Of a DNA stretch of 64,000 nucleotides, positions 11,605 through 59,002 are shown piece after piece; position 1 is the stretch's first letter; every line of letters begins with the position of its first letter. A program made the translations under genes and the position numbers. The DNA lies in IMG/VR virus record IMGVR_UViG_3300014204_000111, positions 64,001-128,000 of that record; one strand, written 5' to 3'. This stretch comes from a virus (Duplodnaviria; Caudoviricetes). Below the pieces are notes generated by a model. It was not told the DNA's origin and made no database searches. It saw nothing but the letters and a program-made list of their open reading frames with translations.

Positions 11605-11970
11605 ATGAGAAAAATAGCGGTTGTAGGAAGCAGAAGTTATGATACTCCTCAAGATTGGATAGAATTCAGAAAAACAATGTTGGAAATTATTCAAGATGAT
11701 GAAGTAATGTTTATTAGTGGAGGAGCTAATGGTTCAGATACAATGGCTGAAAAATTTGCAAAACTCTATTCTATACCAATTTTAATTTGGTATGCTAATT
11801 GGAATAAATTTAAAAAATCAGCAGGATTTATTAGAAATCAACAAATTGTAGATAATGCAGAGGAATTAATTGCGTTTTGGGATGGAGAAAGTAAAGGAAC
11901 TCAACATTCGATAGAATTAGCAAACAAGAAGGGTATTCCAGTAACAGTGATTAATATTATTAAAGGATAA
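11605..11970 (+). CDS. SLOG-superfamily (YspA/DUF2493-like) protein
   Basis: IAVVGSR...ISGGANGSD...AGFIRNQQIV...AFWDGESKGTQHSI. Confidence 0.85.
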   Translation: MRKIAVVGSRSYDTPQDWIEFRKTMLEIIQDDEVMFISGGANGSDTMAEKFAKLYSIPILIWYANWNKFKKSAGFIRNQQIVDNAEELIAFWDGESKGTQHSIELANKKGIPVTVINIIKG

Positions 11971-11973
11971 AAA

Positions 11974-12885
11974 ATGAATATTTCAGATTTTGAAACAGAA
12001 GCAATAAGTGGCAATGTATTTGATTTATGCAAAACACAAAATAATGTTGTAGAGGCTAAGGTAGATGGTGTTAGAGCTATGATAGGTAATCTTAACGGAC
12101 AAAGATTTATGCATAGTCGCAATAAAGTAAATGGTGTTTATGTTAATTATGCTGATGTTTTTGATTATATTCAGGTTCCTGACGGAATAGTTGTAGATGG
12201 AGAATTAGCATATCCAGGTAAATCTAGCAAAGATGTAATGAGAGTATTTGGTTCTTCACCAGAACAAGCTAAAAAAAAGTTATTAACATTAGGTAAACCT
12301 ACTTATTATATTTTTGACGCTCTTTGTCATAATAATTTAGATATGAGAGGTCATTCTCAACTAACTAGGAGACTTACGGCTGAGCTAATAGCTGCTAATA
12401 TGAATTCATATTTTGTGACTGTAGCTCCCGTTTTAGCACAATCATGTAGCTCCTTTGCTCTTGACTCTTTACTTGCTCAATCTAAACAACTAGGTTATGA
12501 AGGATTAGTAATAAAAGATAGAACTAAGTCTTATGACGGCTCGACTTGGGGAAAGGTAAAGGGGTCTTATACCTACGATTTTGTTATTGTAGGATTTGAA
12601 GATTCTAAATCACCTAAATATCAAGATAAAGGTATTGCTGCTCTTCGATTAGGTTTATATAATAAGGATGGTAAACTAGTTTTTGTTACTAAATGTTCTG
12701 GACTAACTGATATTGAGCGTTTTGCTTTTTATCAAAATAAAACAGAATATATTGGAAAAGTAGTAGAAGTAAGTGCTGAAAGAATGTTTGAAACAGGAGC
12801 GTTAAGACATCCATCGTATTTAAATTTACGACCAGATTTGACTGACATACATCAAACATTTAAAAAGTACAATATAGATAAATAG
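11974..12885 (+). CDS. Minimal ATP-dependent DNA ligase
   Basis: EAKVDGVR (motif I), VDGEL, YIFD, EGLVIK, WGKVK, OB-fold ending LRHPSYLNLRPD. Confidence 0.92.
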   Translation: MNISDFETEAISGNVFDLCKTQNNVVEAKVDGVRAMIGNLNGQRFMHSRNKVNGVYVNYADVFDYIQVPDGIVVDGELAYPGKSSKDVMRVFGSSPEQAKKKLLTLGKPTYYIFDALCHNNLDMRGHSQLTRRLTAELIAANMNSYFVTVAPVLAQSCSSFALDSLLAQSKQLGYEGLVIKDRTKSYDGSTWGKVKGSYTYDFVIVGFEDSKSPKYQDKGIAALRLGLYNKDGKLVFVTKCSGLTDIERFAFYQNKTEYIGKVVEVSAERMFETGALRHPSYLNLRPDLTDIHQTFKKYNIDK

Positions 12886-15595: not shown

Positions 15596-15649
15596 TTTTA
15601 TTTTTAAAATTTGTTCATTGAAAATTGTTTGCAAATTATTAATAACAAT

Positions 15650-15929
15650 GCCCAGGTGGTGAAATTGGCAAACACAAGGGACTTACATAAAATTGAGCGT
15701 ATATAAAGGAATTTATATATGGATGTCGCCTAATTCGGTGAAACCTAAGTCAAAAGATATGGCAATACCGAGCCAAACTCTAATAAGAGAAGTGTGTAGA
15801 GACTATACAGCGACCATCCAGAACGGATGAAGATAGAGTCCAGACCCCAAACTTAACAGGTAGAGAAATCTATGGTGGTATGAAAATCCCTCGGCTTCGG
15901 TCTTACGGGTTCGATTCCCGTCCTGGGCA
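15650..15929 (+). tRNA. tRNA-Leu(UAA) interrupted by a group I intron
   Basis: Exon 1 15650-15684 ends GGGACTT; exon 2 15883-15929 starts AAAATCCC; GCCCAGG/CCTGGGC acceptor. Confidence 0.93.
15685..15882 (+). mobile_element. Group I intron (IC3, trnL-type), 198 nt, no ORF
   Basis: P AATTCGGTGAAAC, Q GGCAATACCGAGCC, R GTGTAGAGACTA, S AAGATAGAGTCC; terminal G; inserted after U34 as in cyanobacterial/plastid trnL. Confidence 0.92.
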
Positions 15930-16143
15930 TTTATTTTAAATTAGGAGATAATTATGGAGAAATCTTGTTGGTGGATAGAAGGTGGATTATGTTATTTAGA
16001 GCATAATCGTAGAAATACTACAGATGGACGTTCATGTGTTAAATGTAATGGTGTATGTAAGGGTTATATTTCTAAAAGAGAATTTCTTTCACAGTTTATT
16101 CCAAGTGATAAATTGATAATTATGAGCGAGGAAAGTAATATAA

Positions 16144-38114: not shown

Positions 38115-38600
38115 ATGATTAAAGTTGGAATTGCACCTTATTTAGAATGTAGTTCAAGAGGAAATAAATGCTTTTCTGCTTTTTATGCCAGGATTAAAAA
38201 GAGAAATAACTCTTCTATTGAAGAGATATATCAAGCATCTAAAGTTTTTGAAGATGGTTCAACAAACCTGAATATAGCAGAGGCCAGAGGAAAGGTCGCA
38301 ATAAATCAAGAAGAATGCTCTTTATTATATTCAATGCTTTGGGAAGAATACATTGCAGAGAATCCAGATTTAATTGAAATTTTAATTAATGCTACTGGTC
38401 TTTCAGATATGTATGGTCAGGAAGGCCATTGTTGTCAGGCTCTTGAGCTTTGGAGAATTAGAAATAACTTTATAGAAATAAAGAGTTTAAGTGATGATAT
38501 GTTAAAAGCCGCCGAGAGTTCAATGGGGTTTTGGGATAATGAAGAGGATGAAACTTGGGATGAATCTTTTGTGCCTGCTACTAATTGGGGTACTAAATGA
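38115..38600 (+). CDS. NADAR / T4 gp30.3-like protein (tentative)
   Basis: ECSSRG..FSAFYA...IEEIYQASK...LYSMLWEEY..ENPDL. Confidence 0.5.
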   Translation: MIKVGIAPYLECSSRGNKCFSAFYARIKKRNNSSIEEIYQASKVFEDGSTNLNIAEARGKVAINQEECSLLYSMLWEEYIAENPDLIEILINATGLSDMYGQEGHCCQALELWRIRNNFIEIKSLSDDMLKAAESSMGFWDNEEDETWDESFVPATNWGTK

Positions 38601-39082
38601 TTAAAGCACCTTGGACAAATTGGCAACAAGAATCAATTAAAGCATTTCAATTAATGAATTTGCTTCACCCATTTACTTGTGGGAATGATTCATGCAGAGC
38701 AGAACATAAAGAAAGTTTGATAATTAATGATGGACTTCTTTATTGTCCTCATTGTGGATACACTCAGGATTGGGTTCACGAAATTATGGCAAATTGGCAA
38801 TGGATTTTTGTTCATTGCTCTAAAGAAGAGTATAGCCAATTCAAACAAAATTTAAAATGAGAACTAATATACTTAAATTTCATCTTTATTTGATTCGTAG
38901 ACATTTATCATATTTGCGTCGTCCTATTTTATTGAATCATAGAATTGATGATTTATTTTTATTAAGAAGAATAAATGGTCATACTCCTTGGTTTACAATA
39001 GGATGTAATAAAGTATGGAATTATATAAAAGAACTTTCTAAGGAGACGGTTTAGAGTCTGAAATTTTGGGTATAATAAAGTC

Positions 39083-39164
39083 TAGTGCGGAGATTCAGGT
39101 GCAAGTCCTGACTGCCCAGGCGAAAACGCCAGCAGATAGTTTAAGTAGCAGAATACCGCCATTG
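39083..39164 (+). ncRNA. Circularly permuted tRNA-like RNA
   Basis: GCGG/CCGC, AGAT, TCAGG-TGCAAGT-CCTGA, CTGC..GCAG closed acceptor, TA-GTTT..GAAT D arm. Confidence 0.85.
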
Positions 39165-39583: not shown

Positions 39584-39899
39584 TATTAATAGGAGAAAAA
39601 TGATAAATGAATTTACATTATGTTGGCAGATATGATAATGGAGTTTTTACTGAATCACCTGTAAAAGAAATGTCTAAAGAAATATTTTGTGATGGAATGG
39701 GTAGTCAATGGAATTATACTTTTCGAGATATAGATTTTTTCTTTTATAGACATGGTTTTAAGATAGAAGTAGAAGATGATTTGGCTATTACAAAAATTGG
39801 AGATATCATTTATTATTTCACAATAAGTTAATTTTTGAAAGCTTGTTTGAAGTCCTGTCTATTGGGTATAATAAAGAGTGAAGGAAGGAACTCCTTTAC

Positions 39900-39994
39900 G
39901 AATAGGAGAAGCAGGATTCGATTTCCTGCCATCGCGGATGTGATGTAGTTTAGTCTGGAATACGTCTGCTAGCAAGACAGTAAAACACCTATTT
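39900..39994 (+). ncRNA. Circularly permuted tRNA-like RNA with an expanded D loop
   Basis: ATAGG/CCTAT, GCAGGA-TTCGATT-TCCTGC, CATCGC-GGAT-GTGATG, TA-GTTT...AAAC. Confidence 0.82.
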
Positions 39995-40033
39995 TGAAAA
40001 GCCTGTTTAGAATCCAGTAAAACGGGTATAATA

Positions 40034-40148
40034 GTGTTGTAAAGGTAAAGATGGAAGTTCGAATCTTTTCTAGTGCGTTAAAACCCTGCGGTTCTTGCGG
40101 GGGAGCGTTAGTAGCATAAATGGAATAATGCGTTACTGAATTTGACAC
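40034..40148 (+). ncRNA. Circularly permuted tRNA-like RNA with an extended terminal stem
   Basis: GGTAA/TTACT, AGAT, GGAAG-TTCGAAT-CTTTT, 7-bp CTAGTGC/GCGTTAG acceptor closed by a hairpin, TA-GCAT..ATGC D arm, outer GTGTT/GACAC. Confidence 0.88.
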
Positions 40149-40248
40149 CCGCCACTCGCGGGACATAAGAATGATAAATATGTCATTTCTTTATAAAGAG
40201 GAAACTTCTTTCCTCTAGTTTTAACGGAAGGATTTACAAAGTAAATCC

Positions 40249-41313
40249 TTCCCTCTTGAACCTTGAAAAGTTTGTGTCTAATAAGTTAGAAGAGACGAGT
40301 TGGCTTGCTATTACTGCAAAGCAAGTGAGTGAACCAAAACAGTCTCATATTGAAATATGATAGAGTAAGGAGCTGGACTAAATGTTGCTGCTGGATGCGC
40401 GATATTTAGCCTTACTCATTGTAAGGACGATGTAACGTAGAAAGTACACGTACTCTTTAAGAGATTCGTAGGAAATCTTAGTTTTTCCGTCCAGTTTGAA
40501 AGCAATTGCTGTACCTGACCTGATAGTGGTAGGGGTATGAGGATAGCGAATCATATTTATGGAATCTTACAGATTGACGAATCTATAGGATAAACTATCT
40601 TACGTATGAATTGATTCGTCAATTCAAGAAGCTGCAACTGTTAGGTTGTAGGACTGGTGGGCGTATATAAGATTAAATGCCGCGACCAGTTTGTGATTTT
40701 ATAATCCGAAGAGGATGTCCACCTTCGTTAAAACCTGCGTTGTGTGTTGGCACAGTCAACAGAAAAGCGGACTAATCGTGGTTGACGTTTAAGAGGGCCG
40801 CGACTCTTTATTAACGCGGGTGAAAGCTCTTAAATTGAGAGTGATGGTGAATTATCTTTGGGATAAATTGTGACCATCTAGCGGCCAGCGCTGTGTTGGT
40901 AGATTATCTATCACACTACTGGATTTTAATATATAATTTTTAGTATAATTTTTAGAAAAGATTCTTCTTTGTTTTGCAGTGGCCTTGTCCTAATCTGCTA
41001 GAAGAATCTGTATTTTACTTTGAAAAACTTTAGGATTCAAGTACCTAAGAAACTTAATGTTGTATGATTAGCAACTTCCTAAACGCAAACTTTGAAAATT
41101 TGCAAGAAAAAATAATCAAATGCCATTTCCTTGGCTCACTAATAACTAGATACTTTTAGTGAAAGGAAAGCCATTAGGACGTGTAAGGCTTTAATCTACG
41201 CCCTTAAAAATTGAATCATCGGTCGATTGATGGTGGAAAGACACAAAACCTACCTTTTTTAGAAAGATATTTAAACGGAGGGAAACAACCATCTAAAGAT
41301 AGATGGTTGTTTC
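40249..41313 (+). ncRNA. Large (~1 kb) ornate structured RNA, family unassigned
   Basis: No ORF of 60 aa or more; long-range pairs TTCCCTC/GAGGGAA, TTTGTGTCT/AGACACAAA, TCCAGT/ACTGGA; many hairpins and pseudoknots; 14-bp terminal hairpin. Confidence 0.75.
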
Positions 41314-42650
41314 ATATTATATGAAATTTACCATATGTATTGTATTTGAAATTGAAGAAACTAGTCTTGAAGAAGCTAAGATTAGTGCAGAAGAATACAA
41401 AGAAACATTAGAAGAAGAAAGCAATGGAACAGATTATATTACTCCTGGCTCTTTATCTACTTATGTGACTCAAAAAACTTGTGAGTGTGGAGGAGAAATT
41501 GATTATTATTCTTGGGGAAGAGGAGGAGATTATATCTCCGAAGCTATATGTAAGTCATGTCACAAAGATTTTAATAAGGAATAATATATGTCTAAAAAAG
41601 AGAAGTTAATATATCTTGTGGCTAGAATATATTATGCAGCTAAATGGACAATTACATACAATTCTCTTGACCCATTTAAAGAATTTATTTATACAAGTAT
41701 ATGGGCAATTGATGCTGACCCTAATGGGATTTAAAATATTCTTATTATTAACAGCATGGGAAATGTCTTGTTGTTTTGATTTTTGTAATAGAAAATTAAA
41801 AACAGTTTATTATAAATATAGAGATTTAAATAGACATTGCCCAGGAATGAATATTAAATTAGTGCGTAGGAAAATTTATGAACGTATGCATAACAATCAA
41901 TAATAATATTACTTATGATTATTTTGATAAAAACGATATATATCTGTGGCTTTCTGGAAGGTTTCTATTTACAAAACCAGAAGTGAGACAGAATATAGCA
42001 TATGAAATAATAAATTATGGAAGTTCTGAGTTTTATCATTATAATGACCTTTATCATCATAATGACCATATAATAATAAAAACTACAATGATTAATTGCG
42101 ATTTAGAGATATGAAATGATTAATACAAAAGCTTTGTTTAATATAAGATTTTATGGTTTTTTACATCGTATTATGTATAAATACTTAGTAGCTACTAGAA
42201 TGAGTTGGAATGAAGAAGAAAAAATTAATGATTTTTATAGGAGACATTATCCTATAAGTTGGGGATATGATAGCATAAGTATATCTTACAAGTCTTTCGG
42301 TAGCTTAATTATAGATACTTTAATTATTATATTAGGTCTTATTACATTAATATTTATTAATGTAGAATCATATGATACAAAATAAAGCGTTATAAACATT
42401 ATCAATTTGACCGCAATAATACGATAAGAGCGCAATAATAGAGAATGATATAGAACTATACATAGTGATATATCGTTTTTTATTTACTCTTTATTGAAGG
42501 CTAAGTCTTGCTTAGGAGTCTATTTTACCCTTATAGCTGAAAGCGTAACATTTTAGTTAAATGATAAAAAGAGTATTTTATATATATTTAACACAGCTAG
42601 TGTTTAGAAGCTAAGACTTCGGGTATAATAGACCATTAGGAGATGATTTT

Positions 42651-57315: not shown

Positions 57316-57401
57316 ACAATCAATAGTTTAGGGGTTAGAACGCCAGACAAGCATGGTCGCACCTGTAGATGGTAGGGCAGCTTCGGACGCTGCTTGATTG
57401 T
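57316..57401 (+). ncRNA. tRNA mimic in normal order, without an anticodon loop
   Basis: ACAATCAA/TTGATTGT, TA-GTTT-AGGGGTTA-GAAC, irregular CCA..TGG arm, GCAGC-TTCGGAC-GCTGC. Confidence 0.75.
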
Positions 57402-57497
57402 TGGATGCTAAAGAAGGATGGTTGGCACTTACCAAAAGTCCGCCGCATTGAAAGGCTGCTAGAAGCGCCGTTTATGAGACTGTCTAATTAACAGTTA

Positions 57498-57582
57498 GCA
57501 AGGAAACGAGAGTGCAATCCTCTCTGCTGATTTAGCAAGTTGCAAATTGCCTTAAGCATCGTCTAGTAGAAGGACGCCTTGT
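57498..57582 (+). ncRNA. Circularly permuted tRNA-like RNA
   Basis: CAAGG/CCTTG, AAAC, GAGAG-TGCAATC-CTCTC, TGCT..AGCA, TC-GTCT-AGTAGAA-GGAC. Confidence 0.85.
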
Positions 57583-58363
57583 GTTTGAAATCTGGTGGAT
57601 TGGGTATAATAAGAGTGAGGCAAGGTTCAGGTGAGTAGCTTGGTAAAACATTGGGAATCAACCATAGATAACCTATCTTAAGTTCTTTTAAAATAGTTGG
57701 TATGTTTTGTTCTCATGATGAAGAGCAAAGAGATACGGATATACAGGAGAAGTTCGACTCTTTTCCTCTTGTTCTTCATCTTTTAACTTGATAACTTATG
57801 AGTCTTATAGCCCTTATAATTGGTGAGTCCTGTTATGTATTAGGGAATTAGAAGTAAGACTCTTTTAACTTGATAATTTCATATAAGAGTCTCGCTAGAC
57901 TTAGACCCGGTGGGTTTAAGGGAAATAATTAGAGATTCTTCAGATTACGGGAAGAGAGGATTGGACTTGTATGGAGCAGCTTAACAGTACCCTAATTACA
58001 GGTTCCCTCTCTTTTCTCTGGTTAAATTGTTTGCAAACCCGTACTAACTGGGATAAGTTAGGATGATAACAACATTACAGTTAAATCTTAAAGTCTCATT
58101 GTTAAAGAGCAAGGAGAAATGATATGCGAACCTTCACCTAATTGGTTCTGAAAGACAAAGATTTTAATACATATAAATATAAATTGAATTGTTCGAGTTA
58201 CCTATGTGAAATTCAGGTGGCCTCTTTCTTAGAACTTGTTGCAGTGGTCTTATCCTAATCTGCTGTTCTAAGGGAGAGGTTTTTGCTATTATTTAACCTA
58301 AAACATGTTTGTTTGCTCTTCATCCGGGTATAATAAGGCATCTAAGAAACAGGGAGCTTGAAA

Positions 58364-58816: not shown

Positions 58817-59002
58817 TGTTTGAAACCTGAGCTAACGGGTATAATAAAGCATCAAAGGAGAGAGATGGCTAAATTCTGTTGTGAGTGTGGAGAAAAGGTT
58901 AATGATTATGAGTGGGATGAAGTATTAGGAGCTTATTTCGGTTATTGCTCCGAGTGTGACGAAGACCATCTTGTACATTGAAATATCTCAGTAAGTCTAC
59001 AT

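Follow-up and report, generated by a model that had tools for sequence, protein, structure and literature searches.

A candidate large structured non-coding RNA outside Rfam families in the tRNA region of a 221-kb phage genome

The stretch of DNA analyzed here (the window, 64 kb) comprises positions 64001–128000 of a 220,861-bp virus genome that has terminal repeats and was assembled from a landfill metagenome. The phage sequence recovered in a groundwater run is the same letter for letter where covered; this one independent DNA run spans 40455–40619 with 0 differences and, the segment being identical, gives no variation. Among the sequencing runs listed as containing the phage, none is an RNA run. 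The 221-kb genome contains portal and capsid genes, 22 tRNAs, and genes for an RNA ligase and an RlaP-family protein. Upstream of the locus described below lie tRNA-Met (39197) and tRNA-Pro (39508). Elsewhere in the window, a tRNA-Leu(UAA) with a 198-nt group I intron was found at 15649–15930 and a stand-alone NADAR-DarT1-like protein (Pfam PF22397) at 38115–38600.

Positions 40167–41302 (1136 bp) form the longest stretch of the genome without an ORF of at least 60 aa, so that a preliminary description of this DNA, which reported more than 1 kb free of such ORFs, was right on this point; all the motifs it cited are also present at the positions it gave. The GC content of the gap is 37% vs 31.7% for the genome. 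The second-longest ORF-free gap (57363–58341) and the present locus have in common their promoter ancestry, a hairpin motif and UGAAA words. The features of the locus are:

40004–40032, + strand: strong phage early-type promoter (TGTTT box, 11-nt spacer, GGGTATAAT; PWM score 26.3)
40034–40148, + strand: circularly permuted tRNA-like unit with a YrlA/Y-RNA-like layout, as read from the sequence
40150–40252, + strand: three tandem hairpins (z −5.2)
40252–40286, + strand: putative decayed copy of promoter 57160 (alignment score 45, attained by 0 of 500 random windows)
40289–40488, + strand: 5′ domain of long branched hairpins (z −3.3)
40366–40435, + strand: possible 17-codon ORF with a Shine-Dalgarno (SD) sequence, ATG at 40382, inside the 5′ domain
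40489–40924, + strand: core domain with multi-way junctions, closed by GTCCAGT/ACTGGAT in predicted folds (z −6.3)
40925–40955, + strand: A+U-rich linker (GC 0.18 in 40900–40949)
40959–41009, + strand: hairpin with a UGG...CCUAAU motif in predicted folds (z −2.0)
41016–41260, + strand: 3′ tail without folding signal (z −1.0)
41277–41323, + strand: predicted split ribosome-binding site of ORF 41321–41584 (GGAGG, hairpin 41282–41313, 7 nt, ATG)

Across 40249–41248 the folding z is −4.8, with 0 of 20 shuffles as good. There are 11 local helices at −8 kcal/mol or better where 5.1 ± 2.2 are expected (0 of 100 shuffles), and the excess of long-range helices is marginal, being reached in 3 of 100 shuffles. 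The fold energy is −272 kcal/mol for the + strand vs −219 kcal/mol for the − strand, a difference of 53 in favor of the former. By segment, z is −5.2 for 40150–40255, −3.3 for 40289–40488, −6.3 for the core (40489–40925), −2.0 for 40955–41015 and −1.0 for 41016–41260; the minimum among 40 random 300-nt control windows was −2.96. The single unit of about 1 kb proposed in the preliminary description therefore shrinks, as the signal is confined to 40289–40925 (~640 nt, z −4.6) and z for 40955–41260 is −0.5. Computation shows the 40289–40925 block to be non-coding, strand-specific and helix-dense, with 16 hairpins and multi-way junctions. Because this folding signal is strong, strand-biased and G-U-rich, it speaks for selection on RNA. 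The analysis thus supports a large structured non-coding RNA in the phage tRNA region, outside Rfam families, and we consider it very probable that the block is a real structured transcript.

The predicted core includes a 12-bp helix (40572–40583/40613–40624). Its closure by TCCAGT/ACTGGA was recovered when 40289–40925 or 40485–40930 was folded but fell to a probability of at most 0.01 in longer contexts, in which 40370–40378 competes for the pairing. Two 11-nt segments described earlier as exact complements that form separate hairpins are indeed complementary, but they make one nested helix (probability 0.6–0.94). The three pseudoknots proposed between loops and the 3′ strand of the core (40881–40914) beat shuffles as a set (p ~0.01), but they are exclusive with well-predicted local hairpins at 40893–40916 (probability 0.83–0.85) and 40776–40803 (0.42–0.96). 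When up to three nested loop-to-3′-strand pairings were allowed, the value was −29.4 vs −19.2 ± 3.2 for shuffled 3′ strands (p ~0.01, for a segment chosen after the claim had been seen), and the three best pairings include two lengthened versions of the pseudoknots first proposed. Overall, the candidate pseudoknots are modestly above chance (p ~0.01–0.03); since ViennaRNA cannot score pseudoknots, fold probabilities neither prove nor exclude them.

Complementarity between hairpin loops and distant segments was assessed with apices picked automatically. Four apices have a partner at p ≤0.05 (40313/40968, 40388/40875, 40637/40517 and 41239/40271). Among the underlying pairings, 40313–40325 is complementary to 40968–40980 (13 bp, p 0.01), 40388–40397 to 40875–40884 (10 bp, p 0.03), and 40518–40527 to 40637–40646 in a candidate kissing contact within the core (p 0.02–0.05). 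The combined Fisher p of 0.025 is the lowest among 22 sequences, and the apex contacts link the 5′ domain with the 3′ end of the core and with the motif hairpin. Loop-to-distant-segment complementarity thus appears to exceed controls, if modestly. Real ROOL and OLE RNAs gave no signal in this test, and we therefore take the signal as a connection across the molecule and not as kinship with ROOL or OLE; in kind it differs from the signal of GOLLD/ROOL. Palindromes (40501, 40886) considered as dimer signals are estimated to be at about the chance level for 1 kb, and a 9-bp kissing contact, 40986–40994/41173–41181 (probability 0.03–0.37), is likewise estimated as not above chance.

On the upstream side, the promoter motif TGTTT-N-GGGTATAAT occurs 43 times in the phage genome, with early-region copies that include 39068, 39184, 39864 and 40024. 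The copy at 40024 is the last before the large RNA and the next is at 42621; within 40033–41330 no live promoter was found, no site there scoring above 1.9 (PWM). The first element of a transcript from 40024 is the permuted tRNA-like unit, in which a T arm, a 7-bp acceptor-like stem capped by a hairpin, and a D arm follow one another. It is one of three such units (39080–39160, 39875–39995 and 40034–40148), each with its own promoter, and contains a G3-U70 pair within the acceptor-like stem. The order of arms is comparable to that of YrlA-type Y RNAs (RF02553; PMC4201824), although the likeness concerns the upstream neighbor and not the large RNA, and a search of the phage genome found no Ro60 gene. 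The YrlA model has no match in the phage genome, permuted units included. In the closest near-complete relative (G002; major capsid 62% identical, broadly syntenic, one tRNA), a YrlA-like RNA (13210–13316 in L137:12595–15109; 39.9 bits, below the 69-bit cut-off) adjoins a Ro60/TROVE gene, which lends support to a Y-RNA-like reading of the units described earlier as permuted tRNAs. A second T-arm/D-arm element of this relative (~12600–12690) is followed by an HNH-like ORF.

The hairpin trio ends with a 12-bp hairpin (40226–40252, pair probability 0.97–0.99) whose 3′ arm includes TTCC. The preliminary description had used the same nucleotides to close the RNA by a TTCCCTC/GAGGGAA pairing, which has a probability of 0.00 and is further disfavored by the assignment of GAGG to the SD sequence of the next gene. 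Hairpin ends of the form GGAAGGATTT...TCC(T)CCCTCTT are alike at 40226–40258 of the window and at 58826–58850 of G000, 5.2 kb before the window, and possibly represent a shared processing or spacer element.

Immediately downstream, 40252–40286 has its spacer in common with promoter 57160, its −10 box is now TCTAAT and the A at −11 is lost; it scores 1.9 (PWM) vs 14–33 for live promoters. We read this segment as a decayed promoter whose former start would have been at ~40289, which is also where the structured block has its first helix. A second pairing proposed for the RNA ends, TTTGTGTCT/AGACACAAA, consists of 9 Watson–Crick pairs with a nominal chance of 0.02–0.04 and an ensemble probability of 0.02–0.04, and its 5′ arm, TTTGTGTCT, falls within the apparent promoter relic, which offers another explanation for it.

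On the downstream side, the A+U-rich linker may serve as a processing site or a flexible connection. The motif hairpin that follows is identical to 58239–58264 in 24 of 26 bases. The stem-UGG...CCUAAU-stem arrangement occurs at 40976–40998, 58241–58263 and 57968–57996, the last with an inserted hairpin; we take the motif to resemble, without equaling, the 11-nt GAAA tetraloop receptor. The tail ends in a weak terminator-like stem (41232–41254; 5 bp, 13-nt loop, probability 0.09–0.38) and a run of six Ts. As the loop of this stem holds AGACACAAA and is complementary to the 40271 region (apex test p 0.05), TTTGTGTCT/AGACACAAA might close an extended version of the RNA through a pseudoknot.

The perfect 14-bp hairpin said to end the region is real (probability 0.97) but is located between an SD sequence and an AUG. 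GGAGG occupies 41277–41281 and the ATG is at 41321; bridging by the hairpin reduces the distance between them from 39 nt to 7 nt, and the anti-SD duplex has −3.2 kcal/mol in the linear form vs −9.5 kcal/mol with the hairpin looped out. The start of ORF 41321 is backed by its G002 homolog, which begins at the same residue. A comparable arrangement is found in phage T4 genes 38 and 25, whose split ribosome-binding sites also have a hairpin that restores the working distance between SD and AUG, although the bypasses there are 22 to 5 nt and 27 to 11 nt, shorter than the one predicted here (PMC3014915). Given the flanking elements, the duplex energies, the start in the relative and the T4 precedent, the hairpin most likely belongs to the ribosome-binding site of ORF 41321, outside the RNA proper. 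As a terminator it was rejected: its T tail is interrupted, an SD sequence precedes it and an ATG follows.

We compared the locus with known RNA families. Rfam scans of the whole window and of sub-regions returned nothing beyond chance at the large RNA, and GOLLD, ROOL, OLE, RNase P and group I/II introns, which the preliminary description named among the families to be checked, were negative at the locus. The GOLLD model (RF02032), including its conserved 3′ domain, had no match anywhere in the genome (E up to 10), and the pairwise GOLLD score was at shuffle level; the ROOL model (RF03087) likewise matched nowhere at this threshold, with a pairwise p of 0.13. Because searches for both in 151 Bacillota genomes found none, plasmids were used as positive controls and gave 196.7 bits (GOLLD) and 130.4 bits (ROOL, pMP118). 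For OLE (RF01071), Rfam was negative and five OLE copies gave no significant alignment.

RNase P RNA was rejected, as RF00010 had no match while controls scored and the CR-I/CR-V patterns are absent; the only resemblance lies in two short look-alike words at 40758 and 40818. Group I introns, including permuted ones, were rejected since RF00028 finds only the tRNA-Leu intron at 15675; the P, Q and S patterns are absent from the region and one R-like word with 1 mismatch is present. Also discarded were a group II intron (Rfam negative, domain V pattern absent), one- or two-piece tmRNA (ARAGORN and Rfam negative, no tag-like frame seen by eye) and antisense targeting of tRNAs encoded by the phage (the region shares no exact stretch of 13 nt or more with a tRNA gene).

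The likeness to known large RNAs is thus one of kind. ROOL, with a mean length of 581 nt, six multistem junctions, three pseudoknots and only 10 highly conserved nucleotides (PMC5737381), forms an octamer cage (PMC12286853). The present block has ~640 nt, 16 hairpins, multi-way junctions and pseudoknots predicted from a single sequence, and is also phage-encoded near tRNA genes, with which it is probably co-transcribed; its candidate long-range pairings of 10–13 bp are a signal that ROOL does not produce when tested in this way. GOLLD is likewise large, ornate and located in phage tRNA regions (PMC12286853, PMC12990946). Like GOLLD, the present RNA has two separable domains and an A+U-rich linker, but the universally conserved 3′ domain of GOLLD was not detected and pairwise similarity is absent. 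OLE is about 600 nt long and helix-rich as well, but functions together with protein partners, OapA among them (PMC12286853), and has no sequence similarity to the block. The RNA is therefore GOLLD/ROOL-like in size and setting, yet not a member of either family.

Homolog collection, a check suggested in the preliminary description, was carried out and found none in any collection searched. No homolog of the large RNA was found by blastn against phages and plasmids, by pattern scans of metagenomes and genomes, or by searching the DNA of G001, G002 and another 48 virus records; when viral contigs were scanned for exact patterns, only chance matches turned up. A promoter-pattern scan returned seven records, six of which were then searched for the RNA and contained no homolog, nor did a one-sequence covariance model of 40715–40925 (weak by construction) find one in 29 virus records and the window. 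The neighboring proteins are singletons. For lack of a homolog there is no covariation, and each long-range pairing rests on one sequence. G002 holds homologs, as judged by eye, of both flanking genes, 39607 (at its position 16) and 41321, and protein genes occupy the place expected of the RNA. The absence of the RNA from G002 is likely but unproven, the assembly being 91% complete; with both flanking genes represented there, the RNA would be accessory. Two ORF-free gaps of G002 (L136:17802–18713 and 11753–12346) consist of repeated promoter cassettes and short hairpins and have no similarity to the large RNA.

The reading that we favor by a modest degree is that 40289–40925, perhaps to ~41010, encodes a single large and ornate phage RNA whose family has not been described. 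It draws on the length of the gap, its raised GC, the z values, the helix excess, the + strand bias, the apex test, the triple pseudoknot, the relic start at ~40289, and a size and tRNA-region setting comparable to those of ROOL and GOLLD (PMC5737381, PMC12286853). Against it stand the single sequence, the relative without the RNA, the marginal long-range helix excess and the competition between predicted pseudoknots and hairpins. The RNA would be transcribed early from promoter 40024, behind the permuted tRNA-like RNA, its own former promoter having presumably decayed, and processing close to the 12-bp hairpin (40252) and within the linker 40925–40955 might yield a molecule of ~640–720 nt. 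A compact fold would arise as hairpin loops zip up with the 3′ strand, either of the same molecule or of another copy.

By analogy with GOLLD and ROOL, we hypothesize that the RNA is a self-folding, possibly oligomeric scaffold or decoy. It could be an accessory in a tRNA-protection kit together with the tRNAs, tRNA mimics, RNA ligase and RlaP. Its task would be neither catalysis nor coding but the binding or shielding of RNA, or the titration of a host RNA-binding defense protein; a role in the contest between the phage and host RNA-targeting defense is a guess on the same analogy. A bolder version, in which a new giant phage RNA class of 640–970 nt, unrelated to GOLLD and ROOL, zips loops from all along its length onto distant segments by unusually long pairings of 9–13 bp and either switches between two folds or assembles with other copies into an RNA-only cage that protects or packages tRNA-like RNAs, seems doubtful to us, and a cage-forming oligomer as such, suggested by analogy, rather unlikely.

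The locus might instead be a string of independent small RNA modules (the hairpin trio, the 200-nt branched hairpin, the 435-nt core and the motif hairpin) that are processed apart, like the array at 57.2–58.3 kb. The two places share a promoter ancestor, the UGG...CCUAAU hairpin and an excess of UGAAA words, every block folds independently, and the A+U-rich linker is a natural break. However, cross-domain apex complementarity gives p 0.025 here vs 0.93 in the array, overall sequence similarity between the two is absent (z 2.0), and the core is already a large RNA by itself. We regard this string of modules as unlikely, though deserving serious weight, and lean towards one connected RNA of 640–720 nt flanked by separate small modules; that the unit is connected is, in our estimate, probable.

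It is improbable that the competing helices, several of which have similar energy, act in cis as a leader or switch that controls the 17-codon ORF or read-through past 41232–41260 into ORF 41321, as in an attenuator or a type I toxin mRNA. The 17-codon ORF has the only SD-led start in the region (anti-SD −9.1 kcal/mol), its SD can be sequestered by 40410–40417 (helix probability 0.2–0.4), and the terminator-like loop can pair with 40271–40279. Nevertheless, cis switches need far less than 640 nt of dense structure, the peptide as read has charged middle residues unlike a membrane toxin, one SD-plus-ATG per kb may be chance, the terminator stem is weak, and the downstream gene in G002 has no such leader.

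A very diverged GOLLD or ROOL missed by the Rfam models appears slightly less probable still: size and context fit and ROOL has few conserved positions (10 nucleotides; PMC5737381), but no match was obtained at E up to 10 per genome under conditions in which controls gave 130 and 197 bits, and pairwise scores equal those of shuffles. Decaying or non-functional DNA, or an element acting at the DNA level, for instance a replication origin that unwinds at an A+T-rich site, would account for the dead promoter, the missing homologs, the G002 locus and the A+T-rich patch at 40925–40955, but is highly improbable in view of the strong strand-biased, G-U-rich folding signal and, for an origin, a cumulative GC skew without a turning point near 104 kb.

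To our knowledge, few bacterial or phage RNAs longer than 500 nt have been described apart from rRNA and introns. Two of these, GOLLD and ROOL, assemble into RNA-only cages whose purpose is unexplained, and PMC12286853 raises the question whether large RNAs commonly form cages. The present RNA is a real candidate for an orphan large structured RNA, shorter than earlier claimed and outside known families. Its value is limited for now, as it is a single sequence from an uncultured phage, yet an unrelated 640-nt phage RNA in the same setting would offer a cheap direct test of cage prevalence. Another relative of the phage, represented by a 134-kb metagenome contig behind L036 and 66% identical in its capsid, may have the syntenic site within that contig.
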